Below are positions 546 to 18,936 of a stretch of 18,936 nt of DNA, in pieces. The notes under the pieces are model-generated. The model saw only the letters and a program-made list of their open reading frames with translations. It was not told where the DNA came from and did no database searches. This DNA comes from an archaeon (GTDB lineage Archaea; Iainarchaeota; Iainarchaeia; Iainarchaeales; CSSED10-239). The stretch is taken from NCBI GenBank assembly GCA_035400625.1, contig DAOMZT010000005.1:38696-57631 (forward strand), given 5' to 3'. The translations under genes and the position numbers were made by a program. How positions within the stretch are numbered: position 1 is the first letter of the stretch; the number at the start of each line of letters is the position of its first letter.

Positions 546-2468
546 ATGAAAATAGAAGTAAAGTTTCCTGACGGCTCTAAAAGAGAAATAGAAGCAGGAA
601 AAAAAGCAAAGGATATTATCCTTGAAAATATTGGCGAGGGATTAGCAAGAATAGCAATCGCTGTAAAAGCCAACGGAAAATTGATAGACTTAGAAACACC
701 TATTACCACAACAACAGATTTTTTAGTTATAACATATAAAGATAAAGAAGGCAAGGAAATCTTTTGGCATAGCTCTTCACACATTATGGCTCTAGCTATA
801 AAAAGATTGTTTCCTGATGTTAAATTTGCAATAGGTCCTGCTATAGATGAAGGATTTTACTATGATGTAGACATTAATAGAGCATTTACCGAAGAAGAGT
901 TACAAAAAATAGAAGAAGAAGTTAATAAAATAATTAAAGAAGATATGCCTTTTGAAAGATTTGAAGTTGATTTTGGTAAAGCTTTAGAAATTTTTAAAGA
1001 CAACCCATACAAACTAGAACTGATAAATGAGATAAAGGACAAAGGGGAAAAGATATCCTATTATAAGATCGGAGAATTTAGTGACCTTTGTAGAGGGCCA
1101 CACATCTCTTCTTCTGGAAAGATAAAAGCATTTAAGGTTCTAAAGGCTTCAGGAGCATATTGGAGAGGAAATAGTAAAAATAAACAGCTTCAAAGAATCT
1201 ATGGTGTTTCCTATAACTCTTCAACAGAACTTAAAGAATACCTAACAAGACTAGAAGAAGCAGCAAAAAGAGATCATAGAAAGATAGGAAGAGAACTTGA
1301 TCTTTATAGCTTTCAAGAAGAAGCGCCAGGTATGCCATTCTTTCATGCTAAAGGTTCAATCATATGGAATAAGCTTGTTGAGTTCTTAACAGAAAAGCTT
1401 TACAAGAGAAATTATGAGATTAATAAAACACCAATGATTCTTAACCAATCACTTTGGTTAAGATCAGGACATTGGGACCATTATAAAGACAACATGTATT
1501 TTACAAAAATAGATGATCAGGACTATGCATTAAAACCAATGAATTGTCCAGGAAATCTTTTAATCTATAAGTCACATCAATATTCTTATAGAGATTTACC
1601 AATAAGAGCAGGAGAATTTGGATTAGTTCATAGACATGAGCTATCTGGTGTTCTTTCTGGTCTTTTTAGAGCAAGATGCTTTACTCAAGATGATGCTCAT
1701 ATTTTCTGTACAAGAGAACAAATGAAAGATGAAATTATCGATCTTATTAATCTCTTAGATGAGGTTTATGAAACATTTGGTTTTACTTATCGTATGGAAC
1801 TTTCCACAAAACCAGAAAATGCAATGGGAGATCCTGCTCTTTGGGATTTGGCTGAGAATACATTAAAAGAAGTATTAGATTCAACAGGAAAAGAATATAA
1901 CATCAATCCAGGAGACGGGGCATTCTATGGACCAAAAATTGATTTTCATTTAAAGGATGCAATTGGAAGAAACTGGCAATGTGGAACAATACAACTTGAT
2001 TTCCAGATGCCTGAAAAGTTTAATCTAACTTATGAAGGGCCAAACAACGAGAAGTTAAGGCCAGTAATGCTTCATAGAGCAATCTATGGCAGTGTTGAAA
2101 GATTTATGGGGATATTGGTTGAAGAATATGAAGGGAAGTTTCCTTTGTGGCTAAGCCCTGTCCAAGTAATTGTGCTACCTATCGCTGAAAGGCATAATGA
2201 CTATGCTCGTGTTGTTTCTAAAGTTTTAACTGATATTGGCCTTCGTGTAGAGATAGATGATAATGCCTTAACTCTAAACAAAAAGATTAGAAATGCAGAG
2301 CTTTCAAAGATCAATTACATCTTGGTAGTCGGCGACAGCGAAGAAAATAACCAAACAGTAAATGTCAGGACAAGAGATAACGAAATCTTAGGAGAAATTA
2401 AAGTCTCAGAGCTTATCAAAGCACTAAATGAGGAAATTATAGAAAAAAGAAGAAGTAGAAAAAAATAA
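546..2468 (+). CDS. thrS: Threonyl-tRNA synthetase (TGS domain + bacterial-type editing domain + class II core + anticodon-binding domain)
   Basis: 640-aa ORF. It has an N-terminal TGS-like segment (MKIEVKFPDGSKREIEAGK...) and the editing-domain motif HSSSHIMALA. The class II core shows the Zn-site context PMNCPG, FRARCFTQDDAHIFC and VMLHRAIYGSVERF. PVQVIVLPI marks the start of the anticodon-binding domain. GGAGG at 534-538 lies 7 nt before the ATG. Confidence 0.95.
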   Translation: MKIEVKFPDGSKREIEAGKKAKDIILENIGEGLARIAIAVKANGKLIDLETPITTTTDFLVITYKDKEGKEIFWHSSSHIMALAIKRLFPDVKFAIGPAIDEGFYYDVDINRAFTEEELQKIEEEVNKIIKEDMPFERFEVDFGKALEIFKDNPYKLELINEIKDKGEKISYYKIGEFSDLCRGPHISSSGKIKAFKVLKASGAYWRGNSKNKQLQRIYGVSYNSSTELKEYLTRLEEAAKRDHRKIGRELDLYSFQEEAPGMPFFHAKGSIIWNKLVEFLTEKLYKRNYEINKTPMILNQSLWLRSGHWDHYKDNMYFTKIDDQDYALKPMNCPGNLLIYKSHQYSYRDLPIRAGEFGLVHRHELSGVLSGLFRARCFTQDDAHIFCTREQMKDEIIDLINLLDEVYETFGFTYRMELSTKPENAMGDPALWDLAENTLKEVLDSTGKEYNINPGDGAFYGPKIDFHLKDAIGRNWQCGTIQLDFQMPEKFNLTYEGPNNEKLRPVMLHRAIYGSVERFMGILVEEYEGKFPLWLSPVQVIVLPIAERHNDYARVVSKVLTDIGLRVEIDDNALTLNKKIRNAELSKINYILVVGDSEENNQTVNVRTRDNEILGEIKVSELIKALNEEIIEKRRSRKK

Positions 2469-4913: not shown

Positions 4914-5447
4914 TTATCTTGTTTCCATTTGAGCTAATTTGTCTTTATAAAAATCAGGAAGAGAGCAATCACTTGCTCCTTTTACTAGTGTTTGCTTGTA
5001 ATTCTTACTTGGCTTACCATTAATATCAAAGTTGTTTGTTTGAATATAGATTTCTGCTGAAATTGTTTTGCCATTTTTAGTAACAACATCAATCCATTCT
5101 CTATTATAGCTGTTCTTTGATTTTTCCCTATCTTTTCTGTAACCTTCAATAACATCAAGCTTTTCTATTTCTTTCTTTGTTAGAAGATAAAGACAACCAT
5201 AGACCTCTGAATTCTCATCAAAAACAACAGAGCCAACACCTCTTGGAAAAATCAGACGATGGCTTTTAAGCACGCCATAGCCTTCAGAAATCAAGTCATT
5301 ATTGCCTACTCTGTTTCTTAGAAGATCAATATCCATATTACTGCCATATGCAAAATAATAATAAGTAGTATTAAAATTTAACAAAATGAAAATAATTACT
5401 CCTAGAAAAATAAAAAGACACAAAAAAATAATCAATCTTTTAAGCAT
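4914..5447 (-). CDS. Gamma-glutamylcyclotransferase / AIG2-like family protein with an N-terminal transmembrane anchor
   Basis: 177-aa ORF. The hydrophobic N-terminus is LIIFLCLFIFLGVIIFILL. It is followed by the family hallmark YFAYGSNM and a downstream LDVIEGY (putative catalytic Glu context). Confidence 0.72.
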   Translation of the reverse strand: MLKRLIIFLCLFIFLGVIIFILLNFNTTYYYFAYGSNMDIDLLRNRVGNNDLISEGYGVLKSHRLIFPRGVGSVVFDENSEVYGCLYLLTKKEIEKLDVIEGYRKDREKSKNSYNREWIDVVTKNGKTISAEIYIQTNNFDINGKPSKNYKQTLVKGASDCSLPDFYKDKLAQMETR

Positions 5448-5598: not shown

Positions 5599-6276
5599 AT
5601 GGATATGGAAATAATAAAAGACATTTATAACATTTTACTCATTAACTATGGGCCACAAGGTTGGTGGCCAATATCTGATATTGGTTATCACCCTAACAAA
5701 TATTATGTAATTAAAACACATAAACAAATCTTTGAGGTTTATGTTGGAGCAATATTAACACAAGCAAATTCTTGGGAGAATGTTGAGAAATCAATATTTA
5801 ATCTTAAAAAAAACAATCTATTAAACCCAAAAGCAATAATTCAAAGCGATTCTAGAACAGTAAAACATGCTATAAATAATCTTAGCTATTATAATCAAAA
5901 ATATGAAAGATTAGTAAATGTTTCTAAATTCTATCTAAGTTTAAAAGATCGAATGCCTACTAGACCTGAACTTTTATCAGTAAAAGGCATAGGAAAAGAA
6001 ACAGCAGATTCCATTCTTTTATATGCCCACAGAGAACCTATCTTTGTTGTTGACACTTATACTAAAAGGATACTCTTAAATCTTAAACTAATTAAAAAGA
6101 ATGCAAAATACGAAGAGATACAAAAACTATTTATGGATAACCTACCAAAAGACTTTAAGGTATATCAAGAATATCATGCTTTGCTTGTTGAACACGGAAA
6201 AAGGCATTATTCCACAAAAGCAAAGAAAGGCAAAACACTAAAGGTTAGAGATCCTTTACTTAATCAGCTAAGATAA
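5599..6276 (+). CDS. Endonuclease III-related HhH-GPD DNA glycosylase-like protein lacking the C-terminal Fe-S cysteine cluster
   Basis: 225-aa ORF. The helix-hairpin-helix is LLSVKGIGKETADSILLYA, followed by FVVDTYTKRIL (catalytic Asp context). No Cys-x6-Cys-x2-Cys-x5-Cys motif occurs at the C-terminus. The N-terminal GPQGWWP motif is typical of the COG2231-type EndoIII-related group. Confidence 0.8.
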   Translation: MDMEIIKDIYNILLINYGPQGWWPISDIGYHPNKYYVIKTHKQIFEVYVGAILTQANSWENVEKSIFNLKKNNLLNPKAIIQSDSRTVKHAINNLSYYNQKYERLVNVSKFYLSLKDRMPTRPELLSVKGIGKETADSILLYAHREPIFVVDTYTKRILLNLKLIKKNAKYEEIQKLFMDNLPKDFKVYQEYHALLVEHGKRHYSTKAKKGKTLKVRDPLLNQLR

Positions 6277-9200
6277 CCATAAAACTGATTTATAAAACCA
6301 ACTAATTCTTTACCATATTTTGGTGTTTCGCCAGGATTCCATTTTTCTGCAACACCTTTTTTCTTGTTACTACCTGTAGATAATACCGTGCCAGAATAGT
6401 TATTTTTTAGATTAATTAAAGTTGCTTCAAAGCCAGCATCTAGTGAAGGATATACACAAAAATTGCCGTTTTTTGCTTTTCTACCACCACAAGCACAGCC
6501 ATTTGTTGCTTTGATGCCTGTTGGATTATTCGTTGCTGTTAGCGCACCATTTTTATAAGACCCAGATAACTTATTGTACATGGATTTCTCTCTTTGAAAA
6601 ATTGCCAAAATAAAAATAGGATCTACCTCATATATTGCACAAAGATTATATAGTGTTGGAATGGCCCGTATAAATTTTTCGTCTGCTTTATATCTATTTG
6701 GCCTATCTCCTGCGATTTTTTTAATATCATCCAATGAAACAGACGGAGCACTTGTAACAACCACACTGTTTTTTGCTCTTTTAGTGTTTACTTTTTTAGC
6801 TAAACCTAAATCTCCTGACCTTAATTTAGTTAATGTGTTTGCGTTAGTTGTATAACAACTACCTGTCCCTTTATCTAAAGAATTAATTATTTCTTCTTTT
6901 GTTTTAGGCTCAGACTTTGTAGGTTTTGCAGAGCCCTTAATAGATAACATAAATTTATCAAGCCACACCTTATCAAAGTGCACTAATTGATTAAAACTTG
7001 TCCCATTACTTACAAATTTGTTTTCTAAATCCAGTAGACTAGAATAGCTTGTTTCTGAATTATAAATATAGACATATGTACCGTTTTTTACAAAATCAAA
7101 AAGTGTTATTACATCATCATTCAACATACGAATACAGCCATGAGATCTCTGTTGCCCCATTGAGTTTTCTTTATTTGTTCCATGAATGTATATTCCTCTA
7201 TAAATTGTGTTTCTATTCCCATTTTCACAACCAACACCGATGTTGCCTTTTTCTAAACCATCTATTACTAATTTTCTTGTTACAACATAAGCAGTTCCCA
7301 CATTTTTTTTAGAAATTACTGGTGTGCTATTATTGCATTTACAACCACTTTCATCGATTATTTGGTAAGGCAGACAATTTTGTCCAACTTTTTGTACAAT
7401 TTTAAATAATCCTATTGGAGTTTTATAACTATCATTAACACAGCCAAACCCGTTTACTCCTGTTGACAACGGAAATTCAGCAATTATGTTTGTTTTATTG
7501 TTTTCCTTATTTACTAAAAACAATTTCTTATACTTTCCTAATATGACAATCATTGGCTCTTTAGGATCCAATCTTATTTTCTCATTAATTTCTGGATAGT
7601 CTTCTGTTGAATAACTGTTCTTATAATAGATATCAAACTCTTTTTGTAATATTCTATTATACACTTCTTCAAGTTCTTTATATACTGGACTATCATTAGG
7701 ATTTACCCCTGTTAACAACATATTAAAAGAAGAAGAATCAAAGATATATTCTGGAATATTCCCTTGATTTATTGATGTATCAACAGAACCTAAAAAGACC
7801 CCGTTTTCTTTAGCTTTTGCTATTAGTTTTTGATTAAGATTATTTGAAATCATAACTTCTTTTATTTGGCCATTTTCATAATAGCCATAAGCATTCTTCC
7901 ATCTTGCTGTAGTTTTTAAGAAAACATCTAATCTCTCTATTTTTAAGGTGTTTACCCATGAATGAATAATGTAATGATTAGAGCCAATTTTTCCTAGATA
8001 AACAACTACATGACTATATTCCTTGTCTTTATAGCTGGTGTTGTTATGCTTTATGCCAAGAACAGAACCAGGAATCAATAAATCAAAGTTTTTTTCTTGT
8101 AATGAACCTGTTGTTGCTTTCCAAATACTAATATTATTTGGCTGTTTTGCTAAATTCCAAGCATCAGCAGAATCAAATCTATATCCAAAGAAATTATTAT
8201 TGAAATTTCTAATAAATGCAGAACAAAAATTCACTTTTGGATTTGACCAAAAACTAACACAATCTGTTGGAGTGTTACTAACGCATGTATTTCTATATCT
8301 TTCAAAGAACGAATCTTTTGGAACATATTTTGTTTTAGATATCTTACAGATTAATGTTTCATTACAATTTAATAAGTCACTAAATTCTTTATTTAATGTT
8401 GGTTCATTTTTTATTATTTTTTTATAGACTTTACTATAGTCTTTTAGGATATTTAAATTTCTATTGTCTGTTTCGGTTTTAATAAATGTATTAACTGCCT
8501 GTATGTTTTTATACAGCGTTTGAGAATCGTCAATGGTATATACCGCAAAAGAATCGTTAGGTTGCATATTTTGATTTTGAGCAGTTTGATTCTCCAAAGA
8601 GCCGACATTGCTATTCCCTAAGGCACTTGCAAATTCCAAATAGCTTTCTTCCTTTTTAACATCTAATTCTTCATCTATATTTTTCCATAAAGAAAATTTA
8701 TTTTCAGAAATTGAAAAACAAGCTTCGCTATTATATATATTATTAATCAATTCAAAAAATCTAAAATCTTGATTTTCTTTATTTAATCTATATACATGCC
8801 TTCCATTTTCTGTGCTTTCAAAAACATCTACATTAAAGACTAAAGGGCTTTGTGATTCTATGATTATTGGATAACTTGCATTTTCTAATTTTGGAGGGTA
8901 GATTACAATTGTTTCTTTTGTTGCAAATTCTTCTCTTGAGTTATTTATAGTTAAGAGGTTATTTGTATAATTTACATATTCTCTGCCATTATAATATTTT
9001 ATAATAATTTCTTCTCCTGCATCTTTGTTAATTATCACAGGTTCTGTTAAGTTAATTATAAAATCAGGGTGTGCAGAATCAATGGAAACAACATTTCCGT
9101 TTTGTAAATTGTTATAATTATCAATAATTTCTGGGAGATTAGATGTAAAAGAAGTGGTATTTTCAAAAATATTTCCACGATTATAACTTAGTGCATTTAT

Positions 9201-10976
9201 TGTTTTTAAGAATAATGGATTACTAGAAAAATATTGGTTTTCAAAATAATAATTTACAAATAAATTTGTAGTAGGATTATCAAGCATTATTTTGGCGTTT
9301 TTAGTTGCAGGGGTGATTTCTGAAACCTTTACAACCACAGTTTTAGGTTCTAAGTTCACACTAAAATCAGACAAATTTAATTTCCAATAATTACCAAACA
9401 TTTGTGTGTGTTCATTATTTAGTATTCTTGTGGTTTCTTCTTTAAATGGCTTAATATTATAAATAAAATAATTTAGGCCTTCTGAATAATAAATATTTGA
9501 ATAGCCTTGTGTTTTGTATTCTAAGCCATATAATAGTTTAGAATAGACATCATCATTTACTCTTGAAACTTTAAAATTATTAATAGAAGAAAGGTATTTT
9601 TCTAATGTTATTTGATAATGGGTATGATAGTCTGTATATTTATAATAATCAGAACCTAAAATCTCTTGTAATAATCTATTAAATTCAGAATCACTAACTG
9701 CTGGCTCATTATTTGTTAAGTCTAAAATTGTTAATTTTCTATATTCCTCAGGAACAGAGTTTAACACAGCAATAGAAAATTCCAAAGATTCGGATATAGA
9801 ATTGTTTGTTGATAATTCAGTTATTAAAGACAAGTCTTGTTCAAGATAAGTTCCTACTTTTGAAATTAAGTTGTTTTTTCCTTTTTTGTATTTTATGTTT
9901 CCCATTTCTATATAGTTATTATCAGTAATAGCATCTATCTTTTTTGAAACCGCTATTCTGAACTGATCTTGATCAACATAGTATTCCCCATAATCAAAAA
10001 GATCTGATGGAATATTATTGTTCCATTCAAAATATAATCTGTCTAAGCCAAACACCTCTAAAGAATCATTAGTAAAACCGGAGATTCTAGAGCCATCTGG
10101 CAAAAGACAAACATTTTCTTTGGCACTCAAATATTCAGTTATTGATTTCTTTTTTTCTTCAAAGACAGATTCACCACATGAAGAAAAGCCATTTTCATTT
10201 ATTCCATAGTCTTTTAGATGGCAATATGGGCAATAAAATTCTATAATGTTTCTATTAATTTGAAACAAGGTGTATTTATTAAAAGAATCATAATCTAGTT
10301 GTAAAATATTAGTATTATATATTCCACTTACATTTTGATTACTATCTGTTTCTATAATTTGCAAAGAAAAGTTAGTGATGTTAGGTTTTAGATTTAAAAG
10401 TAATTTGTTATTGGTGATGTTGCTTTTGTTTAGTTTAAGATATCTAGGTACAGAGTTTATTTCTATTATTGAAGATGTTGCATTTACAAATCTGTTCTTT
10501 TCAGGTATCTGACTAGATTGAGGATTATCAATAACCAAATATATTGCTTGAGTAGTATCTGATAAATCTAGTTTTAGTTCTAGGGTTTTGTCTTTTGTAA
10601 TTTCTTGAGAGGAATTGTTAATAACATATGTTCTGCCTTGATTAAAAACATATATTCTTTTTTTCAGATTTAAATTTTCTTTTAAAAAATAATGAGGGAT
10701 ATCTAGAGATTTGTAATTTAATTGAGCATTAAGAGAAAAACCTAAATTTTGGTCAACAGAAGTAAAAAGGGTTATTGTGTCTTGAGATTCTTCTTGTTCA
10801 GTATCTGGAAAAACTAAGGGGATTGTTGAATTATCTAATTCCCCTTCTATTCCATTTATTGCAAAAGGCACAACTACAGGGGAGCTTTCATCTTCTGCAA
10901 CCATAAATGGCAATATTAAGAAAATAAAAAGCATTATCATTATTTTTGAATATTTCATAACTTGTTCACATTTCAT
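6264..10976 (-). CDS. Giant secreted multidomain cell-wall-active protein: signal peptide + about 880 aa of unknown Asn-rich region + NlpC/P60-like peptidase + YkuD L,D-transpeptidase + GH73-like N-acetylglucosaminidase
   Basis: 1570-aa uninterrupted ORF. The signal peptide is MKYSKIMIMLFIFLILPFMVA; a start at the second ATG (10958) is plausible. NlpC/P60-like module: NFCSAF (Cys codon 8223-8225), YSHVVVYLG (His codon 8010-8012), HYIIHSW. YkuD module: IYIHGTN...SHGCIRM (Cys codon 7134-7136). GH73-like module: ILAIFQREKS (Glu codon 6588-6590), NNPTGIKA, FCVYPSLDAGFEATLINL. Confidence 0.85.
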   Translation of the reverse strand: MKCEQVMKYSKIMIMLFIFLILPFMVAEDESSPVVVPFAINGIEGELDNSTIPLVFPDTEQEESQDTITLFTSVDQNLGFSLNAQLNYKSLDIPHYFLKENLNLKKRIYVFNQGRTYVINNSSQEITKDKTLELKLDLSDTTQAIYLVIDNPQSSQIPEKNRFVNATSSIIEINSVPRYLKLNKSNITNNKLLLNLKPNITNFSLQIIETDSNQNVSGIYNTNILQLDYDSFNKYTLFQINRNIIEFYCPYCHLKDYGINENGFSSCGESVFEEKKKSITEYLSAKENVCLLPDGSRISGFTNDSLEVFGLDRLYFEWNNNIPSDLFDYGEYYVDQDQFRIAVSKKIDAITDNNYIEMGNIKYKKGKNNLISKVGTYLEQDLSLITELSTNNSISESLEFSIAVLNSVPEEYRKLTILDLTNNEPAVSDSEFNRLLQEILGSDYYKYTDYHTHYQITLEKYLSSINNFKVSRVNDDVYSKLLYGLEYKTQGYSNIYYSEGLNYFIYNIKPFKEETTRILNNEHTQMFGNYWKLNLSDFSVNLEPKTVVVKVSEITPATKNAKIMLDNPTTNLFVNYYFENQYFSSNPLFLKTINALSYNRGNIFENTTSFTSNLPEIIDNYNNLQNGNVVSIDSAHPDFIINLTEPVIINKDAGEEIIIKYYNGREYVNYTNNLLTINNSREEFATKETIVIYPPKLENASYPIIIESQSPLVFNVDVFESTENGRHVYRLNKENQDFRFFELINNIYNSEACFSISENKFSLWKNIDEELDVKKEESYLEFASALGNSNVGSLENQTAQNQNMQPNDSFAVYTIDDSQTLYKNIQAVNTFIKTETDNRNLNILKDYSKVYKKIIKNEPTLNKEFSDLLNCNETLICKISKTKYVPKDSFFERYRNTCVSNTPTDCVSFWSNPKVNFCSAFIRNFNNNFFGYRFDSADAWNLAKQPNNISIWKATTGSLQEKNFDLLIPGSVLGIKHNNTSYKDKEYSHVVVYLGKIGSNHYIIHSWVNTLKIERLDVFLKTTARWKNAYGYYENGQIKEVMISNNLNQKLIAKAKENGVFLGSVDTSINQGNIPEYIFDSSSFNMLLTGVNPNDSPVYKELEEVYNRILQKEFDIYYKNSYSTEDYPEINEKIRLDPKEPMIVILGKYKKLFLVNKENNKTNIIAEFPLSTGVNGFGCVNDSYKTPIGLFKIVQKVGQNCLPYQIIDESGCKCNNSTPVISKKNVGTAYVVTRKLVIDGLEKGNIGVGCENGNRNTIYRGIYIHGTNKENSMGQQRSHGCIRMLNDDVITLFDFVKNGTYVYIYNSETSYSSLLDLENKFVSNGTSFNQLVHFDKVWLDKFMLSIKGSAKPTKSEPKTKEEIINSLDKGTGSCYTTNANTLTKLRSGDLGLAKKVNTKRAKNSVVVTSAPSVSLDDIKKIAGDRPNRYKADEKFIRAIPTLYNLCAIYEVDPIFILAIFQREKSMYNKLSGSYKNGALTATNNPTGIKATNGCACGGRKAKNGNFCVYPSLDAGFEATLINLKNNYSGTVLSTGSNKKKGVAEKWNPGETPKYGKELVGFINQFYGYLS

Positions 10977-11070
10977 AATTGTTTCACATTTAAATTACAT
11001 ATATTATATTATATCTAAATATATATAAACTTTTCATAAATGATCTTGTTGTCCATAAACCCCCTCACTA

Positions 11071-11108
11071 TTTCGATAATTTTCAATAAGTTTCGCTAAG
11101 TTTCGCTA
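11071..11108. repeat. Three copies of TTTCG(A/C)TA, two of them within a perfect 10-bp tandem (AGTTTCGCTA x2), in the divergent intergenic region
   Basis: TTTCGATA at 11071-11078. AGTTTCGCTA at 11089-11098 and 11099-11108. The repeats lie between the giant gene (minus) and the 11208 operon (plus), so they are a candidate transcription-factor binding site. Confidence 0.6.
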
Positions 11109-11110
11109 AA

Positions 11111-11207: not shown

Positions 11208-11327
11208 ATGAAGAAATTAAGTTGTCCAGCAAAAAAACTAAGACAATTAGTTTTTGCAATTTTTGTTTACCTTGCTATTCTTGGTACCTTGATATTCACA
11301 TTATTAAAAATAAGATTTGTAAAATAA
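11208..11327 (+). CDS. Small single-pass membrane protein (39 aa; 41 aa if started at 11202), absent from the ORF track
   Basis: ATG AAA ATG AAG... encodes M(KM)KKLSCPAKKLRQLVFAIFVYLAILGTLIFTLLKIRFVK, ending at TAA 11325-11327. GAGGTGA at 11194-11200 lies 7 nt upstream of the ATG at 11208. The stop is followed by GGAGG (11331-11335) and the next ATG at 11342, which suggests translational coupling. Confidence 0.55.
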   Translation: MKKLSCPAKKLRQLVFAIFVYLAILGTLIFTLLKIRFVK

Positions 11328-11341
11328 ATTGGAGGAAGAAA

Positions 11342-12376
11342 ATGAATATAAAAAAAATAACAAATATAATAGTCGCAATATTTGCAATGACTGTATTTTT
11401 TATTGCAACAGCTCCTAAGTTGTTTGCAGATAGTTCAATATTAACAACTAGTGGTTCTTATGCCCCTGCAGATATTACATATCAACTAAACATACCTTGT
11501 GCAATAGATAGAACAAAGATAATATTGCCTGCTAAAATTCAACTAAACTCTGATGGGCAATATAAAGCCATTTGTAACTCTAGTGCCTATTTTAATGAAG
11601 AAACAGAAGTTTATCATTTAAAGAAAAATGAAGGCTATTATCTAGATATAGTAATATTGCCTGAAAAGACAAGCAAAAAGATAAATTTTTCTGAAATTGA
11701 AACAATAACATTAGATTTCTATAATCAAGATAATGAAAAGGCATGTTTTACTAAAAAACTAACCAAAGATACAACACAAGAAAATCTGTATGTTGGAAAA
11801 ATAAGTTATGTTAAAGGAAACGATTCTAAAGAATCTGCTTTAGAGAACATGGAAGGCTTTATTAATTCTTGCGGAATGGATACAACACTTAAATTTGAGG
11901 TTAGTGTAGAATCAAAAATAGGTGAAAAATTCACAGCAACAAACTCTGGAAATATAAAATACCTAGTTATTGACTCTGACAATTCAAATATAGTTGCAGA
12001 AAACGCAAGAGTCCAAAAACAAGTACAAGTAAGAAAAATGCAATCAAATTCTGAAAACAAAAACATCCAACAAAGAGAATCTATAAATGCCATTAATAAA
12101 GCACAGATATCTAAACAACTAACAATTAGAAACAATAATGAATTTTATATGGTTAGAGAAAACAAGGTAAAAAAGATAATGCCAGTTACACAAATGCTTC
12201 AAGAAAACAAAATAAATGTTGCAAAGGTAATTGGGGACATAAACCTAGAAACAGTTTCAGAGACACCAACCTATGTTTTTGAAGTCAAAGAACAAAGAAA
12301 ACTATTTGGGTTTATTCCAATTGGTCACAAAATAACTAAAAAAAGAATATCTGCAATAAAGGAAATTACAGAATAA
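11342..12376 (+). CDS. Secreted protein of unknown function (Sec-type signal peptide)
   Basis: The ORF-track entry 11222..12376 starts at TTG and overlaps the small ORF. The ATG at 11342 has GGAGG 6 nt upstream and gives MNIKKITNIIVAIFAMTVFFIATAPKLFA/DSS, a classic signal peptide. No family was recognised. Confidence 0.75.
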   Translation: MNIKKITNIIVAIFAMTVFFIATAPKLFADSSILTTSGSYAPADITYQLNIPCAIDRTKIILPAKIQLNSDGQYKAICNSSAYFNEETEVYHLKKNEGYYLDIVILPEKTSKKINFSEIETITLDFYNQDNEKACFTKKLTKDTTQENLYVGKISYVKGNDSKESALENMEGFINSCGMDTTLKFEVSVESKIGEKFTATNSGNIKYLVIDSDNSNIVAENARVQKQVQVRKMQSNSENKNIQQRESINAINKAQISKQLTIRNNNEFYMVRENKVKKIMPVTQMLQENKINVAKVIGDINLETVSETPTYVFEVKEQRKLFGFIPIGHKITKKRISAIKEITE

Positions 12377-12397
12377 TTTCCTTTTTCTTGTTTTTTT
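12377..12397 (+). terminator. Oligo-T tract (TTTCCTTTTTCTTGTTTTTTT) immediately after the stop codon; archaeal-style intrinsic terminator candidate
   Basis: The tract is read directly and follows TAA at 12374-12376. Runs of T are the known archaeal termination signal. Confidence 0.5.
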
Positions 12398-12410
12398 AAC
12401 AATAAGTAAC

Positions 12411-12420
12411 TTTAAATATA
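12411..12420 (+). promoter_or_regulatory. TATA-box candidate TTTAAATATA positioned for a leaderless transcript starting at ATG 12442
   Basis: The box centre is about 26-27 nt upstream of the ATG at 12442, matching the canonical archaeal TATA-to-TSS spacing. No SD lies between them. Confidence 0.5.
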
Positions 12421-12441
12421 AGATTGCAATATAATATTATT

Positions 12442-13308
12442 ATGTTTTTAAAAAAAATAATGCCTATCTTTATTTTTTTAATAATACTTAATTATAATTT
12501 TGCACAAACAATTGATTTTCAAAAAACAGAAATAACACATTACGAATTTGACACCTATAAAATTAAAGATAGCCTTATTGTATCAAACATAAATAACAAC
12601 CAACTTGTATTTGATATAGTTCCTTGCTATGATGTGATTGTTAAAATTAATAATCACAAAACAGATTCTATTTCTTACAACCTAAACACACTAACCATTA
12701 ACTTAAATGATAATTTAAAAGATTTAGAAAAGATAAATATAGAAATTATCTATTTGACAGATTACTATACTAATAAAGAAAAAGGCACGTGGATATTAAA
12801 TTACGGTTCAAGATATAAGGACAAAATTGATGAACTTAAAATAACACTTCCAAAAAATGCAAAAATCCTAGATACTCCAAGTGGTGCTACTGCACAAGTG
12901 ATTAATAAACAGATAAATCTTTCTTTAAAAGAAATTGCAGAAACTCACATAAATTACGAAACACCAGAATCTTCTTCAGGACCTAATTATTTTGTTATGA
13001 GTCTAGTTCTAATAATCGGAATAGTTTCATTTTACTTTGCATATAAGAAAAAACCAAAAGTAAAAAATAAAGCCAAAAGTAAAACTTCAGATTTACTTCT
13101 TGGTCTAAACGAAAACGAACAAAAAATAATTAAAGTTGTTATGGAGAAAGAAGGGCAAACACAGAAAGCAATTACTGCAAAAAGCTTTCTACCAAAAGGC
13201 ACAGTTTCCAGAAATATTAAAAAGCTTTCGGACAAAGGATATATTGAAATAAAGAAATATGGCGTAAGCAACAAGATATTTCTTGGTGAGGTTTTTAATA
13301 AAAAATAA
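12442..13308 (+). CDS. Membrane-tethered winged-helix (MarR/ArsR-like) transcriptional regulator with an extracytoplasmic N-terminal domain
   Basis: The ATG at 12442 is preferred over the track's TTG at 12424. The N-terminal hydrophobic segment is MFLKKIMPIFIFLIILNYNFA, followed by an ectodomain of about 170 aa. The TM helix is YFVMSLVLIIGIVSFYFAY (about 12987-13046), followed by KKKPKVKNKAKSK. The C-terminal wHTH-like segment is LNENEQKIIKVVMEKEGQTQKAITAKSFLPKGTVSRNIKKLSDKGYIEIKKYG. Confidence 0.7.
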   Translation: MFLKKIMPIFIFLIILNYNFAQTIDFQKTEITHYEFDTYKIKDSLIVSNINNNQLVFDIVPCYDVIVKINNHKTDSISYNLNTLTINLNDNLKDLEKINIEIIYLTDYYTNKEKGTWILNYGSRYKDKIDELKITLPKNAKILDTPSGATAQVINKQINLSLKEIAETHINYETPESSSGPNYFVMSLVLIIGIVSFYFAYKKKPKVKNKAKSKTSDLLLGLNENEQKIIKVVMEKEGQTQKAITAKSFLPKGTVSRNIKKLSDKGYIEIKKYGVSNKIFLGEVFNKK

Positions 13309-13319
13309 GGAGGATAAAT

Positions 13320-13691
13320 ATGGATGGTTTTTTAACAAACAACAATATTACTGAACCAGAAATAAAAGATACTCCTGATATTAAAAAGATTAAAAAAATA
13401 AAAGAAAAGCCAATAAAAGTAAAGCCAGTAAAAATAAAAGAACCAAAGGCTCCTAGAAAACCTAATGTTCTTAGGGCATTATTAATTGGGCTACTATTAT
13501 TTGGGTTACTTGCTGGTTCTTTTGTAGCATACGACAAATACAAAAAAGGTGAATTAAATCTAGAAAATATAAAATTTTTAAAATTTCTAGATTTAAATAA
13601 CTCTAAACAAGAAGACACAAACAGAAATATTGAACCACAAAATATTGATACTAATTTTCCTGATTTAAATAACGATCAAAATAACATGTGA
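13320..13691 (+). CDS. Small single-pass membrane protein with a Lys/Pro-rich N-terminal region
   Basis: 123-aa ORF. GGAGG at 13309-13313 lies 6 nt before the ATG and directly after the upstream stop, so the gene is probably co-transcribed. The N-terminal KKIKKIKEKPIKVKPVKIKEPKAPRKP is followed by the TM helix ALLIGLLLFGLLAGSFVAY. Confidence 0.65.
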   Translation: MDGFLTNNNITEPEIKDTPDIKKIKKIKEKPIKVKPVKIKEPKAPRKPNVLRALLIGLLLFGLLAGSFVAYDKYKKGELNLENIKFLKFLDLNNSKQEDTNRNIEPQNIDTNFPDLNNDQNNM

Positions 13692-13693
13692 CT

Positions 13694-14266
13694 TTATACT
13701 CTTAATTTAGGTCTTACTGGTCTTTTTTGTTTTTTGATAGTAACGGTTAGTGATTCTCTCTTTTTATCTAATTTTCTTTTACTCATAGAGTATCTAAAAT
13801 TCGAATTGTATTGTCTTCTCTTGCCATTAATATTTGCTTGAGCAGTAAGTTGTTTAAGTGATCTGTGCAAGGCGGGGTTAGCAACCATATCTATCCTAGT
13901 AAAACCTTTTGTTCTTATTTTTGCAACAGTATTAATCAGTAATTTCCTGCCAAGACCTCTTGCTTGGTGTTCTTTTCTTATAGCAATTCTACCAATGTAT
14001 GCACTTTCTTTATCTCCTCTATTAGATATAGAGAAACCAATTATTTTTTTATTTTTATGCAATAGATTAATGTAAACTCCAAATTCTCCTAATTCTTTTA
14101 ATCCATCATATAGATTTGATTTTAGCAAGTTAAAATATTCATCTTTTTTACAATTTACTAAATTATTAGTATATTCTATTTCATACAATTGATTAATCAG
14201 GCTTTCTTTTTTAAGAAATGCAACAACATCTTCTTTGTTGTTTAATATTATGTTTTGATATTTCAT
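13694..14266 (-). CDS. GNAT-family N-acetyltransferase with an Arg/Lys-rich C-terminal tail
   Basis: The true start is the ATG at 14266 (MKYQNIILNN...). The first 32 codons of the track ORF (to 14362) are a read-through of the tRNA-Leu gene. The acetyl-CoA motif A is IGRIAIRKEHQARGLGRKLL. The tail is ...GKRRQYNSNFRYSMSKRKLDKKRESLTVTIKKQKRPVRPKLRV. Confidence 0.8.
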   Translation of the reverse strand: MKYQNIILNNKEDVVAFLKKESLINQLYEIEYTNNLVNCKKDEYFNLLKSNLYDGLKELGEFGVYINLLHKNKKIIGFSISNRGDKESAYIGRIAIRKEHQARGLGRKLLINTVAKIRTKGFTRIDMVANPALHRSLKQLTAQANINGKRRQYNSNFRYSMSKRKLDKKRESLTVTIKKQKRPVRPKLRV

Positions 14267-14278
14267 AAAAATCTTAAA

Positions 14279-14360
14279 TGCTAAGGGCAGGATTCGAACC
14301 TGCGAAGCACTAAGCACCAGATCTTGAGTCTGGCTCCTTTGACCGCTCGGAAACCCTAGC
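14279..14360 (-). tRNA. tRNA-Leu (anticodon CAA), class II with long variable arm, no encoded CCA
   Basis: The reverse complement folds as follows. Acceptor GCTAGGG/CCTTAGC (one G-U pair). D-arm TCC-GAGCGGTCAAA-GGA (archaeal/eukaryal style). Anticodon stem CCAGA/TCTGG with loop CTCAAGA. A 13-nt variable region. T-arm GCAGG-TTCGAAT-CCTGC. Discriminator A. Confidence 0.88.
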
Positions 14361-14462
14361 AAGGCTTTTTTATATAATAATTTAAGATATATTTATCGTA
14401 TATAATTTAGTATAAAAAGAGTTATAAACATTAATTTTCATATAATATATAGCGATTAAATT

Positions 14463-16139
14463 ATGGATAGAAAAAAAAACACAATTATTGCAATAATTTT
14501 TACAACATTAGTTATCGGTATTTTTATTTTAGCCTCTATTTACTTAAACAAAAATCCAACTCCCGCAGATAAAATAAACGAACAACTAAGAGCACAAAAT
14601 GCATCTTGGATTGCAAGAGATTACCCAGATGAGATTATAAATATCCCTATTGTTCAAACACAAGATGATTTTATAGAGGATGCATCAGACATACCAATAT
14701 TTAATCAAGAAACAAAAAACCAGATTTTCCCAGAACACGAAACATTTACAAAAAAGGCAGAATATAATAATAAATTAACCGCATTTTTATTTCTTAACAC
14801 ATTAGTCACTCGAAATCATAAATTACAAGACAAACTTTCTTGGAAAAAATACATACATAATTTTCAATCACAAGAAGGTTGTGGTGGCTGTAGTGCATTT
14901 GCAACAATCTCTGCATTTGAGGCATATGCTAATAAAACAAAAAATTTAAACTTAAATCTTTCTGAACAATATCTAATCTCACATATTAATTTTCAAGGTT
15001 GTTCAGGAACTAACACCGAATATTATCTAAGATTAATAACCCTTAATAATTTCAATCCTAATACTGAAAATATAAATGAGTATTTAAAACGAAAAACAAA
15101 AAATGAAATATTAAATGAAAAAGGACTCTTAAATAAAGTGAATCCTTGGGGTGTAAGAAAATTACAAACAAAAACACAAATAAGTTTAATGAATGGAGAG
15201 GTTCCATTTGGTGTGCCTTTAGAAAGTAAACTTAAATATTTATCTTATGACTCTTGTGAGATTACAAATAATAATAGCGAAACAAAATCAGGAATGAATT
15301 TAAAATTATTCCATCAAATTTATAATTATAATTATAGTATATTTGATGAAAACTTTTGCCCAGACCATGGTGATAATAAAGATCTTTTTTTGCCTCAAAA
15401 GATATCCGGTATAAACAAATATTTTATAGAAAGCTATTTTAAAATAGACAATTCAGATTGTAAGGAAAATAATTCCCAAACCGTAAAAAATATTAAAGAA
15501 GCACTAAAATACTCTCCAATAATTGGGAATACAAATAAATTTTATAACTCTATTAGAGATAATTACAAAGAAGGTGTTTGGGAGAAATTGAATGATGAAA
15601 ATCACGTGATTTTAATAATAAACAATAAAAAATATATTGTTGGTCATGCAATAGTTATTGTTGGTTGGGGCGTAGACACAACTACCGGAAAAGAATATTG
15701 GATAATAAAAAATAGCTGGGGCAAAGGTTGGGGTGATAACGGTTATTTAAATACATGGATTAATGACAAAGATCTAACTATAGAATGCTCTTCATTATAT
15801 GGTTTTTCAGGAGATGTGATTGTAAAATCAGGTGATCAAATTAACAATTTATTGCCAGTCGTTAGAGAAGAAATCGAACAAGACAAAATTAGAAAACAAG
15901 AAATTGAAAAAATAAAACAAGAAAAACTACAAAAGCAACAAGAAATTAAAAATCAAAGACCTCTACTTAATTTTCCTGACGATTTTAATCCACTTAACGA
16001 TTATTTCCAAAAAAATATAAGTTATTCAGATATGGAAAATATAATAAATAATGACTGCTTAACTATCACTACTTGTTTTTATAATAAATTATACGACTTT
16101 TTAAATACTCCTGAAACACAAGATAATAGATTAACTTAA
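14463..16139 (+). CDS. Membrane-anchored papain-family (C1A) cysteine peptidase with a C-terminal coiled-coil/Lys-Gln-rich extension
   Basis: 558-aa ORF. The N-terminal TM is [21 protein letters not shown]. The active-site block is [12 protein letters not shown] (Cys codon 14889-14891; compare papain QGSCGSCWAF). The His block is [10 protein letters not shown] and the Asn block is [17 protein letters not shown]. The C-terminus reads [30 protein letters not shown]. Confidence 0.88.
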
Positions 16140-16177
16140 AATCAGTGTTTCTATTTTAGGCAATCAAATAAAAAGAA

Positions 16178-16432
16178 TTAAAAACCATCTATGCCTTTGC
16201 CTTTTCTTCTCTTAAACTTAGGGCCACCAAACAAATTTGCAAAGAAACCTGGCTTTTTTAATTTTTTATCTTTTCTGACCACTCTTCTTGGGCAAAATAA
16301 TCTTTGAAAGAAATTTTGTTCATTTCTTCTTCTTGTATTTCCTACAGAAACTGCCCCTGGTTCTGGTTTTGGGATCCCACCTGTTCCATAATATGCTTCT
16401 TGAAGTATCTTATCATGATCTTGTCTTTTCAT
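16178..16432 (-). CDS. Small, very basic protein of unknown function (84 aa)
   Basis: The ATG at 16432 is preceded by GGTGA (complement of 16441-16445) with 8-nt spacing. The track's longer form starts at GTG 16444. The sequence is MKRQDHDKILQEAYYGTGGIPKPEPGAVSVGNTRRRNEQNFFQRLFCPRRVVRKDKKLKKPGFFANLFGGPKFKRRKGKGIDGF, with a repeated FFxxLF motif. No family was recognised. Confidence 0.5.
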   Translation of the reverse strand: MKRQDHDKILQEAYYGTGGIPKPEPGAVSVGNTRRRNEQNFFQRLFCPRRVVRKDKKLKKPGFFANLFGGPKFKRRKGKGIDGF

Positions 16433-16552
16433 AAATATTCTCACCTTTTTTAAAAGTAGATATATATGAATAGAAGGATATAAAAATATTATCTAAATCA
16501 AACATAGAAATTAGTCTTGTTCTCTAGTGATAATGTATCCAAAAAATAAAAA

Positions 16553-17797
16553 TTAAGGAAAATAACTCATTAATTTATCCCCTTTTGTCCTATCACTTAA
16601 TTTTATGTATTTATGTAAAAACAAATCGATTGTTTCATTTACTCTTGCATGTCTACATTTGGATAGATTACAGTTTTTAGAGTTAAATACTGTTTTCATA
16701 ACAACAGCCACGTGCTTCTTAGAAGCCCATATTTTTTTAAAACTAGATTTGTTAATATTTCCAATCTCAAAATTGTTTTCTCCAAGGTGGGGATTACAAA
16801 GATAAACATTGCCATCAGTATCTATATTTGCAATCAAACCTAAAAGAATATTCCAGCAAATCCCTGTTTTACTAATACAAGGAGTGTTTTTATTTTTTTT
16901 GATACCAGTTATGTTTTCAATTTCTTCTTGTCTAATATCAGTTTCTTTCTTTAATATATTGTATAGTCTTTTTTTCTGATCAGAATTTAATTCAACATCT
17001 TGGTATTTTAATTTTCTATTCCTGTAAGTTCTTTCTGGTTCGAAATTATTAACACATCTTAATGCAATGTCTTTAAATCCAAGATTTTTAATGTAGTTAT
17101 ATATTCTTCCAGCAAATAAATAATTTTCTCTACAAATCATTATTTTTGCAGAAACATAGGTGTTTGTATTTTTTGTAAGGCGTAATAAATCTTTTATGTT
17201 CTTTTCAAGAATCTCAAATTGATCAGAATCAGCAGGTAATCTTCCAACCATATTATATAATTTTTTAGTATCTGCAAGAATAGAAATAGACACCCAGCTT
17301 AACTTTTTAATAAATTTTTTATTATTAAATTTATCAAGATTAACTCCGTTAGTATTCATACCATAATGTAAATTATATTCAGAAACAATCTCATTTAATT
17401 TGCCTTTACAAGCAAGCAATGCTTCTCCTCCACCGACTAAAACCACTCCCTTTCCAGAAATGCTTTCAAAGTCAGAAAGCAAGCTTTTTAATTTGGCTTC
17501 TGAAATTTCAATGCCATCAGCTATGTTTATTTCATTTCTTTGTTCACTTGAACAGAAGGTGCATTTTCTATTACAATAAGGTGTTGGATTAATGCCAAGC
17601 GACCTTGGTCCGATTTTAGAATATAATTTTAAAATCGATTTTTCTAAGTCTTTAGGATTGCTTCTAATTTTCTGAATTAATTCTGTATTTGACTTAACGC
17701 CTAATATCTCTTTCAAGATTACAAGTCTTTCTTGTGTAGCATCAATTGATTTTAATGAGCTAAACCCATGATAACTTGTAAGTTCTAATTTTTTCAT
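16553..17797 (-). CDS. Radical SAM enzyme with a roughly 70-aa N-terminal helical extension and a Cys-rich C-terminal (twitch/SPASM-like) region
   Basis: 414-aa ORF. The CX3CX2C motif is YCNRKCTFCSS (codons 17552-17575). The SAM-binding GGE motif is VLVGGGEALL. The C-terminal cysteines are CISKTGIC...DGNVYLC...CNLSKC. Confidence 0.85.
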   Translation of the reverse strand: MKKLELTSYHGFSSLKSIDATQERLVILKEILGVKSNTELIQKIRSNPKDLEKSILKLYSKIGPRSLGINPTPYCNRKCTFCSSEQRNEINIADGIEISEAKLKSLLSDFESISGKGVVLVGGGEALLACKGKLNEIVSEYNLHYGMNTNGVNLDKFNNKKFIKKLSWVSISILADTKKLYNMVGRLPADSDQFEILEKNIKDLLRLTKNTNTYVSAKIMICRENYLFAGRIYNYIKNLGFKDIALRCVNNFEPERTYRNRKLKYQDVELNSDQKKRLYNILKKETDIRQEEIENITGIKKNKNTPCISKTGICWNILLGLIANIDTDGNVYLCNPHLGENNFEIGNINKSSFKKIWASKKHVAVVMKTVFNSKNCNLSKCRHARVNETIDLFLHKYIKLSDRTKGDKLMSYFP

Positions 17798-17887
17798 ATA
17801 TAAAATTCCTGCCTTTTATTTTTCTTAAAAAAATCTAAACTAAAAGCATTCTTTTTTTAAAATTCATGATTCTTAGTTTAAATTTTA

Positions 17888-18936
17888 TCAATTTTCCTTA
17901 TCAGTCTTTTCATCTGTTTTAAAAAAAGACCAATTCTCATTATTATATATTTTTGGTTGATTATCAATCATTTCTGATTGACTAGCCACTTCTGATTGGT
18001 TATCTGTAACTTCTGGTTGACTAGCCATGTCTGAGGAAGGATTTTCCACAACTTCTGGTTGAAGTGGGTTGTTAATAACATCTTTCTTTCTTCTTTGAAA
18101 CACAAAAACCAAAATAATAATTACAATACACACAACCAAACCAATAATTAGATATATAAACCAACCACTATCTTTTTTATTTTTAGTTTCTGCTTCTTCT
18201 GAGTTTTCTGATTCCTCAATTTTTTCTATTTTTTCTTCTGGTATTTCCTCTGTGTTCTGATCTTCACTAACATGTGCGTTTTCATCTGATTCTAGTAATT
18301 CCTCGTTTGTTTCTCCAGAACTTATTATGGTCTTTATAAGATTTAATTGAGATTCGGTTACTTGCCTATTTACAGAATACGTAAATTCTGTTGTGTTTTC
18401 TGAAGATAAAGTGCTTAAATCAAATTCAATTATTGGATCTTCTTTTATGACATTAAAAGATATTGTAGAATTAATATCTGATGTGGAATTTGCTATTACT
18501 TTAGGTATAATTTCAATTACTTTTAAATTTGTTAAATTTTTATCAGAAATGTTCTTTACAGACAATGTTATCTTTGATAGAAATTCTGTTTTCTTTGAAG
18601 ACAAAACAGTTTTTGTTGTTTCTAATTTTCTCTTAATTTCATATTGGTTACGATTATTTAGGGTATATTTTTCTAAATTAATATCATCATAAGACAAATT
18701 ATTATCTTCTAAAATTTCTTGAACATTTTCTGGAGATGGGATTTCAATATTTGTTGTTATTGAATTATTAGTAACTATTGGATAGGATTTTGTAGGGCCA
18801 GACCCTCCTCCTGATGGTGGAGAAGATTTGGATTCTTCAAATTTAGCAACAACAGTTATGTTATTATTAACATTAGTGTCAGTACGTGGGTTCTGGGTAG
18901 AGTTATCACTCCATTTTACAAAATGATAGCTACTAT
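17888..18936 (-). CDS. Type I membrane surface protein, 5'-truncated by the window edge (the ORF stays open beyond the track's TTG at 18697)
   Basis: Hand translation of the minus strand from 18934 to 18698 in the same frame finds no stop. It reads ..SSYHFVKWSDNSTQNPRTDTNVNNNITVVAKFEESKSSPPSGGGSGPTKSYPIVTNNSITTNIEIPSPENVQEILEDNN, continuing into LSYDDINLEKY... The Y.F..W...ITVVAKF pattern resembles a Listeria-Bacteroides (Flg_new) repeat. Downstream come an acidic stalk, the TM helix WFIYLIIGLVVCIVIIILVFVF, RRKK, and a repeat-containing cytoplasmic tail. Confidence 0.75.
   Translation of the reverse strand, partial: SSYHFVKWSDNSTQNPRTDTNVNNNITVVAKFEESKSSPPSGGGSGPTKSYPIVTNNSITTNIEIPSPENVQEILEDNNLSYDDINLEKYTLNNRNQYEIKRKLETTKTVLSSKKTEFLSKITLSVKNISDKNLTNLKVIEIIPKVIANSTSDINSTISFNVIKEDPIIEFDLSTLSSENTTEFTYSVNRQVTESQLNLIKTIISSGETNEELLESDENAHVSEDQNTEEIPEEKIEKIEESENSEEAETKNKKDSGWFIYLIIGLVVCIVIIILVFVFQRRKKDVINNPLQPEVVENPSSDMASQPEVTDNQSEVASQSEMIDNQPKIYNNENWSFFKTDEKTDKEN

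Follow-up and report, generated by a model that had tools for sequence, protein, structure and literature searches.

The stretch of DNA analysed here, 18,936 nt of contig DAOMZT010000005.1 (the window), carries on its minus strand one very large gene, whose product looks like a secreted protein bearing three modules aimed at peptidoglycan, a polymer that archaea, to our knowledge, do not make. The gene is a single uninterrupted open reading frame (ORF) of 1570 amino acids (aa) at 6264..10976, coordinates that take in the stop codon at 6264-6266. The frame was verified as given in a preliminary description of this DNA, and arithmetic placed all the catalytic codons proposed there at the same positions: C918 in NFCSAF at 8223-8225, H989 in YSHVVVYLG at 8010-8012, C1281 in SHGCIRM at 7134-7136 and E1463 in FQRE at 6588-6590. 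We found 17 full-length or near-full-length homologues of the protein, with 44-98% identity, and because they begin at M7 (MK..K), the true start of the gene is probably M7 at 10958. From that residue runs a predicted Sec-type signal peptide, MKYSKIMIMLFIFLILPFMVA followed by EDE (aa 7-27; 10896..10958, minus strand), identified by hydropathy, with an inferred cleavage site and an N-terminus conserved among the homologues. This segment was the sole 19-residue stretch with a Kyte-Doolittle value above 1.6, besides a borderline one at aa 1442, and the hydropathy scan revealed neither a C-terminal membrane segment or anchor nor any other strongly hydrophobic stretch. From this lone N-terminal hydrophobic segment, the protein looks Sec-secreted, as had been proposed.

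The YkuD L,D-transpeptidase-fold module occupies aa 1154-1304 (7065..7517, minus strand). The Pfam profile PF03734 matched it above its gathering threshold (E=6.8e-16; 59.6 bits against a cut-off of 23.4), and the same threshold was passed in five homologues. Alignment of IHGTN...SHGCIRM with the solved structures 1y7m, 2mtz (B. subtilis YkuD) and 9tyw matched both the catalytic His and the catalytic Cys. In agreement with this alignment, the key residues H1265, C1281 and R1283 were conserved in 16-17 of the 17 homologues having the module. At the level of sequence, these results make the YkuD assignment, already present in the preliminary description, a solid one.

The module that had been called NlpC/P60-like lies at aa ~896-1045 (7842..8291, minus strand), and its proposed catalytic residues are C918, H989 and H1005. 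The NlpC/P60 profile itself, PF00877, gave no match in this protein or in 14 family members, and Peptidase_C92 matched 4 of the 14 at E=0.004. A PDB profile search with the family-only alignment of the module (A2) returned nothing significant and PHROGs returned no match. A profile search of 1.84 billion representatives recovered ~35 mostly small proteins (~115-590 aa) that share exactly this module; these small homologues were likewise unrecognised by Pfam, apart from one of 36 that matched NLPC_P60 at E=0.0021. When 36 sequences, including ~30 small homologues, were aligned, the only invariant columns were C918, the Ala of a DAW motif and H989, while position 1005 was mostly His and otherwise Gln, Glu, Asp, Asn or occasionally another residue. 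A Cys followed by a His and then by a polar residue is the canonical order in NlpC/P60 and CHAP amidases, and the module has a conserved Cys...His...polar triad in this same, non-permuted order. A permuted arrangement of the C92/LRAT type was rejected, since the Cys comes before the His, with no conserved Cys further along the sequence. The structure model of the module (predicted local distance difference test score, pLDDT, of 73; predicted template modelling score of 0.73) had as its top Foldseek match in the PDB the NlpC/P60 endopeptidase 3m1u, a non-significant hit (E=0.06, probability 0.75, template modelling (TM) score 0.40), and CHAP lysins, Tae2 and DUF1460 appeared further down the list, among noise. 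Against BFVD, a C92 papain-like amidase ranked first (probability 0.98, E=0.016), and CHAP phage proteins were listed as well. The sole PDB match by sequence profile was Tae2, an amidase of the type VI secretion system, again non-significant (E=0.075). Given the triad and these weak fold and profile matches, our reading is that the module forms an as yet unannotated family of the papain-like peptidoglycan-amidase superfamily and does not belong to Pfam NLPC_P60; the earlier assignment thus stands at superfamily level, by its Cys-His order and conserved residues, but not at that of the named family.

The C-terminal module, at aa ~1426-1570 (6267..6701, minus strand), is of the GH73 N-acetylglucosaminidase type, with E1463 as its proposed catalytic Glu. 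PF01832 matched all six family members carrying the module that were scanned, with a best E of 3.9e-6, although the window protein itself scored below the cut-off. The top 16 Foldseek matches in the PDB were all GH73 enzymes, including LytB, AtlE, Auto, SagB and FlgJ; LytB led the list (probability up to 1.0, TM score 0.57), no match had E <0.05, and GH23 lysozyme-like folds came next. For comparison with E. coli FlgJ, whose sequence was checked against PDB 5dn4 (E=3e-89), four GH73 motifs were sought (..E-S.., NN.FG[IV]K, F..Y.S and Y..DP.Y). In the MAFFT alignment, E1463 fell opposite the Glu of ALESGWG, which we take to be the catalytic residue of FlgJ, and the other three motifs followed in order. 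E1463 was invariant in all seven aligned members with the module. The FlgJ beta-hairpin that carries the second acid is replaced in this protein by a shorter GCACGG loop, in which no equivalent acid was identified. An hhalign comparison of the family alignment (A3) with the single FlgJ sequence recovered the C-terminal motif only, at a probability of 0.9%, a PDB profile search with A3 gave nothing significant and PHROGs gave no match for the module. Judged by its motifs and its family-wide profile matches, the module is GH73-like, so the FlgJ-like glucosaminidase that had been proposed is supported by residue and motif alignment but falls short of the Pfam cut-off.

In nine relatives the GH73 module is replaced by a different C-terminal region of ~330 aa containing AQESGT...GIAQI. 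This alternative region matched weakly to Phage_lysozyme2 (E=3.8e-5, in 2 of 7 members), Transglycosylas (0.0026) and SLT_4 (0.018); a PDB profile search with it returned spurious JAK2 kinase matches only, and PHROGs returned none. Because the type of glycan cutter has been swapped yet some cutter has been kept, this pattern suggests that the selected function is cutting the glycan strand of murein.

Conservation along the protein followed the modules. Mean pairwise identity was 70%, 68% and 62% in the three catalytic modules, 40-48% in the linkers and 53% in the N-terminal part, and the best-conserved region of all was the Cys-His module, at 70%. Nearly all family members, the window protein included, keep the catalytic residues. 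Of 18 close relatives, P0013 and P0015 have Ser in place of C918 and P0006 has Pro in place of H989; the YkuD Cys of P0010 is changed to Asn, in addition to a deletion, and P0013 is devoid of the entire C-terminal glycan-cutting module. Losses of single catalytic residues in these four relatives would fit a protein that is mainly an adhesin, whose modules bind or tether peptidoglycan, with catalysis reduced or confined to a covalent link, so that its purpose is attachment and not lysis. In YkuD chemistry, moreover, the enzyme becomes covalently acylated by the stem peptide, and in the account of PMC10653827 drawn on here Lpp is attached to peptidoglycan by LdtA-C of E. coli. We consider such a role improbable, since the great majority of members retain the catalytic residues and since the glycan-cutting module was exchanged for another of catalytic type instead of being lost.

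The N-terminal scaffold spans aa 28-860 (8397..10895, minus strand), contains 19 N-x-S/T sequons and has no match in Pfam, the PDB or PHROGs; searched as a profile against the PDB, the first 1,120 aa gave zero matches. This part had been described as unrecognisable, which holds for those databases but not for its relatives, as a stretch of ~500 aa is also present in further secreted proteins of giant size. In a profile search, this conserved core module, at roughly aa 277-786 (8619..10148, minus strand), matched through profile positions ~271-780 proteins of ~500-2400 aa, with E down to 1e-51, and in most of them it lies near the C-terminus. Some of 19 long proteins sharing the scaffold carry Peptidase_C1, CarboxypepD_reg, SpaA, SdrD_B, bMG3 or Big_1 domains, and most of the long ones have a single N-terminal hydrophobic segment. 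The ~500-aa module therefore looks like a common scaffold of giant secreted proteins that presents varied enzymatic or adhesive heads, papain-type proteases and Ig-like adhesin domains among them, and its sharing with proteins that carry adhesin-like domains is a further point in favour of the adhesin role just discussed. The same region had also been called Asn-rich. Asn does make up 12.0% of the first 860 aa, but it makes up 10.6% of the rest, and the richness of the whole protein follows from a genome of 28% GC; a special Asn-rich, low-complexity region was rejected because Asn is uniform along the protein, as that GC content predicts.

We then considered the organism. All six full-length genomic relatives come from genome bins titled "archaeon", and the exact protein is deposited as GenBank HPV66630.1, "MAG TPA: L,D-transpeptidase [archaeon]". 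Its neighbours are likewise deposited as archaeal, contigs carrying these proteins reach 813,239 bp, and a copy 98% identical to the big protein is labelled Candidatus Diapherotrites. The aspartyl-tRNA synthetase (AspRS) of the window is of the non-discriminating type found in archaea, and every named relative of it comes from an archaeon (Diapherotrites, Woesearchaeota, Nanoarchaeota or plain "archaeon"), from a DPANN where classified. The neighbouring regulators are of TrmB/DUF7343/Lrs14 type, which are archaeal kinds. Rfam searches of the window and four further loci found tRNAs only and no rRNA, no ribosomal protein was seen in the window, and Pfam found no archaeal marker in the flanking ORFs of the locus L005. 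If the contig were a mis-binned piece of a bacterium, for instance of the Candidate Phyla Radiation (CPR), the protein would be an ordinary autolysin. Such an error would account for the threonyl-tRNA synthetase (ThrRS) at 546-2468 (plus strand), which adjoins the archaeal-type AspRS and is of bacterial/eukaryal type (TIGR00418, 726 bits; the archaeal-type NF003068 scored 219 against a cut-off of 484), and the genome is small and AT-rich, as CPR genomes are. That reading is hardly credible in view of the AspRS, the GenBank records of the exact proteins, the regulators and the six independent "archaeon" bins with the same gene order, even with no rRNA or ribosomal protein in the window. The sequence evidence thus confirmed the archaeal origin that had been proposed, and it places the contig in a DPANN lineage and not in a CPR bacterium.

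Gene order around the big gene is shared among loci: C1 protease, tRNA-Leu/GNAT, membrane-anchored winged helix-turn-helix (wHTH) regulator, orf384, big gene, HhH-GPD, a gamma-glutamyl cyclotransferase (GGACT), AspRS and ThrRS. The part from the C1 protease to HhH-GPD has the same order in loci L001-L006, where orf269 was not detected. Across loci the AspRS keeps 83-86% identity while the big protein drops to 44%. From this common order and the difference in identity, the gene is best described as vertically inherited within its clade and fast-evolving. Horizontal acquisition, which had been suggested, was not borne out: no close bacterial donor was found, the closest bacterial match being 40% identity across 60 aa of YkuD, and a search of 5.8 billion proteins with the GH73-module profile gave only two more family fragments. 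The GC content of the gene is not anomalous. A viral or prophage origin was rejected, as no viral relative of the protein was found in IMG/VR.

The divergence of the big protein relative to its housekeeping neighbours also bears on whether it serves in nutrient scavenging. It would then be an exo-enzyme that digests free or dead-cell peptidoglycan for amino sugars and amino acids, with no specific host and no contact, and the domain evidence is the same for this use as for an attack on living cells. The lack of a recognisable adhesin or wall-binding domain agrees with it, as does a gamma-glutamyl cyclotransferase gene conserved nearby, and in the part of PMC11537232 drawn on here Pacearchaeota are proposed to obtain amino acids from the peptidoglycan of dead bacteria. 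Rapid divergence, however, fits a partner-specific interaction better, a scaffold of 860 aa common to giant secreted proteins, some with adhesin-type domains, is odd for a diffusing digestive enzyme, and a module of transpeptidase fold is no obvious digestive tool. We regard scavenging as unlikely, though as a possibility to be kept in mind.

All in all, the explanation we favour, with a probability of roughly 0.6, is that of a Sec-secreted giant DPANN protein whose three murein-directed modules locally open or remodel the peptidoglycan of a neighbouring bacterium; its substrate, its extracellular site of action and its biological role are what we infer. The protein would be exported, and its lineage-specific scaffold of ~860 aa would keep the catalytic modules at or near the cell surface, with no anchor identified. 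The papain-like Cys-His(-His) amidase or endopeptidase would cut peptide stems. The YkuD-fold L,D-transpeptidase or L,D-peptidase would act at the meso-diaminopimelate/Lys-D-Ala position of the stems or on 3-3 cross-links, and the GH73 N-acetylglucosaminidase would cut the bonds between N-acetylglucosamine (GlcNAc) and N-acetylmuramic acid (MurNAc) in the glycan strand. The resulting local breach or remodelling of the bacterial sacculus may allow attachment to or penetration of a host, or may yield wall or cell material as food. The weapon or attachment factor against bacteria that had been suggested is, on this view, a reasonable conjecture. Several observations weigh against this explanation. 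YkuD enzymes are normally synthetic cross-linkers and not lytic, so that what this module would do in a lytic protein is not obvious. The Cys-His module matches no curated family and no solved structure significantly, with E-values of 0.004 or worse, PF01832 stayed below its cut-off of 30.2 (21.7 bits with the whole protein, 28.0 bits with the isolated module) and the AlphaFold model of the GH73 module is poor (pLDDT 52). A Pfam scan of the protein found no LysM, SH3b, PG_binding or other recognised wall-binding domain, and the loss of single catalytic residues in some lineages means that not every module is indispensable.

The substrate might also be something other than murein, namely the organism's own envelope or the wall of an archaeal host, such as pseudomurein or glycoproteins. 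The Cys-His module is indeed too divergent for a substrate to be assigned to it. YkuD, however, requires an L,D-bond to a D-amino acid and GH73 cuts beta-1,4 GlcNAc-MurNAc linkages, while pseudomurein contains L-amino acids only and beta-1,3 links of talosaminuronic acid; the substrate chemistry of the two modules thus differs from that polymer. Known cultivated DPANN have archaeal hosts, according to the passages of PMC8204110 and PMC11537232 drawn on here, but archaeal peptidoglycan hydrolases are rare in lineages that make pseudomurein (Strock et al., PMC12352652), and we consider a non-murein substrate very unlikely.

Within the attack on bacterial murein that we favour, the part of the YkuD module can be imagined differently. 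The module might be a genuine transpeptidase that joins the surface protein, and hence the archaeal cell, covalently to the peptidoglycan of the bacterial host, with the mesh opened locally by the amidase and glucosaminidase modules; the parallel is the welding of Lpp to murein by E. coli LdtA-C. This arrangement is a long shot. If true, it would mean that cells from two domains of life are joined covalently.

The regions flanking the big gene showed further features. A TATA-like TTTAAAT at 10988..10994 (minus strand), read from the sequence, lies 30-36 nt upstream of the second ATG (M7) and is a tentative promoter element; further AT-rich boxes lie upstream of it. Between the big gene and orf384, which diverge from each other, the intergenic DNA contains four tandem 10-bp units, TAGCGAAACT, TAGCGAAACT, TATTGAAAAT and TATCGAAA, at 11071-11109; these could be a candidate regulator-binding site. 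Beyond them, positions 11222 to 18697 of the window place the big gene within a conserved block of secreted or membrane proteins. In this block orf384 has a signal peptide from the internal Met 41, the wHTH/DUF7343 regulator (12424-13308) and the papain C1 protease (14463-16139) are membrane-anchored, and orf269 has a C-terminal membrane segment. The listed 222-aa GNAT ORF at 13694-14362 (minus strand) overruns the tRNA-Leu at 14278-14361; because its first ~30 codons are tRNA, the real GNAT start lies downstream. A radical SAM/SPASM enzyme (16553-17797, minus strand) adjoins an 88-aa ORF (16178-16444, minus strand), and the 88-aa ORF is 67-69% identical in L001, L003 and L005, so the two may be a peptide maturase and its precursor. 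In other giant proteins, too, C1 proteases occur joined to the shared scaffold module, and the distantly related locus L005 has an extra papain C1 protease of 724 aa at 17715-19889 (minus strand), between AspRS and ThrRS. In L001, HhH-GPD is followed by an inserted second giant secreted ORF (15604-24849, plus strand; >3082 aa), which has a signal peptide and runs off the locus; the window has nothing at that position. The GGACT gene (AIG2/GGACT; 4914-5447, minus strand) keeps its place next to the big gene in L003 and L005, and any tie to the processing of gamma-glutamyl stem peptides is pure speculation.

DPANN make up a large share of archaeal diversity, and few of their lineages have a known partner or a known mode of interaction. 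Genomic evidence for an interaction of this lineage with bacteria, and not with archaea, comes from a conserved secreted protein directed at murein, which fits the published idea of such archaea attaching to or feeding on bacteria. The swappable glycan cutter, the unannotated Cys-His family and the scaffold held in common suggest that these organisms build their surface proteins from a modular kit. Three separable modules with defined catalytic residues are also reagents for examining wall specificity and for host finding. The general idea having been published, what the protein adds is detail and testability and not a new concept.

We compared the protein with known systems. In bacteria, S. 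aureus Atl joins an amidase to a GH73 enzyme, CwlT of ICEBs1 joins a muramidase to an NlpC/P60 module, and Tae2 is an amidase effector of the type VI secretion system. Like the archaeal protein, Atl and CwlT thus combine a cutter of peptide stems and a cutter of glycan in one polypeptide. The Cys-His module links to this group through Tae2, its only PDB profile match, and through CHAP and NlpC/P60 lysins, which are among its fold matches. The archaeal protein differs from these bacterial and phage multi-catalytic hydrolases in that its producer has no known murein wall and in the addition of YkuD; moreover, the bacterial enzymes are targeted by LysM, SH3b or similar repeats, whereas this protein has a very large scaffold. 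As for YkuD itself, E. coli LdtA-C and the hydrolase DpaA/LdtF, family members that fix proteins to peptidoglycan or free them from it, have the same catalytic motif HG...SxGCxRM (PMC10653827, in the part drawn on here), but they are periplasmic and do housekeeping on the cell's own wall, while the module studied here belongs to a secreted archaeal protein.

The closest systems are found among DPANN themselves, and the novelty suggested for the architecture was too strong a claim: HPV66630.1 was already in GenBank as "L,D-transpeptidase [archaeon]", and large extracellular murein-degrading proteins of Woesearchaeota and Pacearchaeota had been published (PMC8204110, PMC9723730; these and the following statements reflect the passages of the two papers drawn on here). 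Those giants (PMC8204110; Woesearchaeota AR20, Castelle 2015; GH23, Vigneron et al. 2022, PMC9723730) are, like our protein, giant, secreted and encoded by DPANN, and they carry a wall-degrading module of bacterial type; features given by Castelle 2021 (PMC8204110), namely a DPANN origin, >1000 aa and a secretory character, are present in our protein. A role in wall attachment or degradation had already been proposed for the large DPANN murein transglycosylase proteins (PMC8204110, PMC9723730), as binding or degradation of bacterial walls is proposed here for our protein, and sister lineages of our family carry a C-terminal module weakly like lysozyme/SLT. Going by those descriptions, the difference is that the published giants have a GH23 murein-like lytic transglycosylase, while our protein has no GH23 and has a GH73-type module instead. 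It also adds the YkuD and Cys-His amidase modules, neither of which is mentioned in those passages of PMC8204110 and PMC9723730; YkuD was likewise not mentioned in the top-ranked papers of a YkuD/DPANN literature search.

Archaeal peptidoglycan hydrolases that kill bacteria, prominent in Nanoarchaeota, have been reported by Strock et al. (2025, PMC12352652). Those enzymes, such as the Halogranum protein with M23 and PG_binding_1 domains, resemble ours in being archaeal, secreted and active on peptidoglycan through bacterial-type domains. They are small, with one catalytic domain and a Pfam wall-binding domain, whereas ours has three catalytic modules and a huge scaffold, and their function was shown experimentally, whereas that of our protein is deduced from sequence. 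The screen used in that study would miss our protein, because it requires a Pfam wall-binding domain and none was found here. Set beside these systems, the concept of archaeal proteins directed at bacterial walls was already known, and what is new lies in the details: the three-module architecture, the swap between GH73 and lysozyme-like modules, the orphan amidase family and the shared scaffold.

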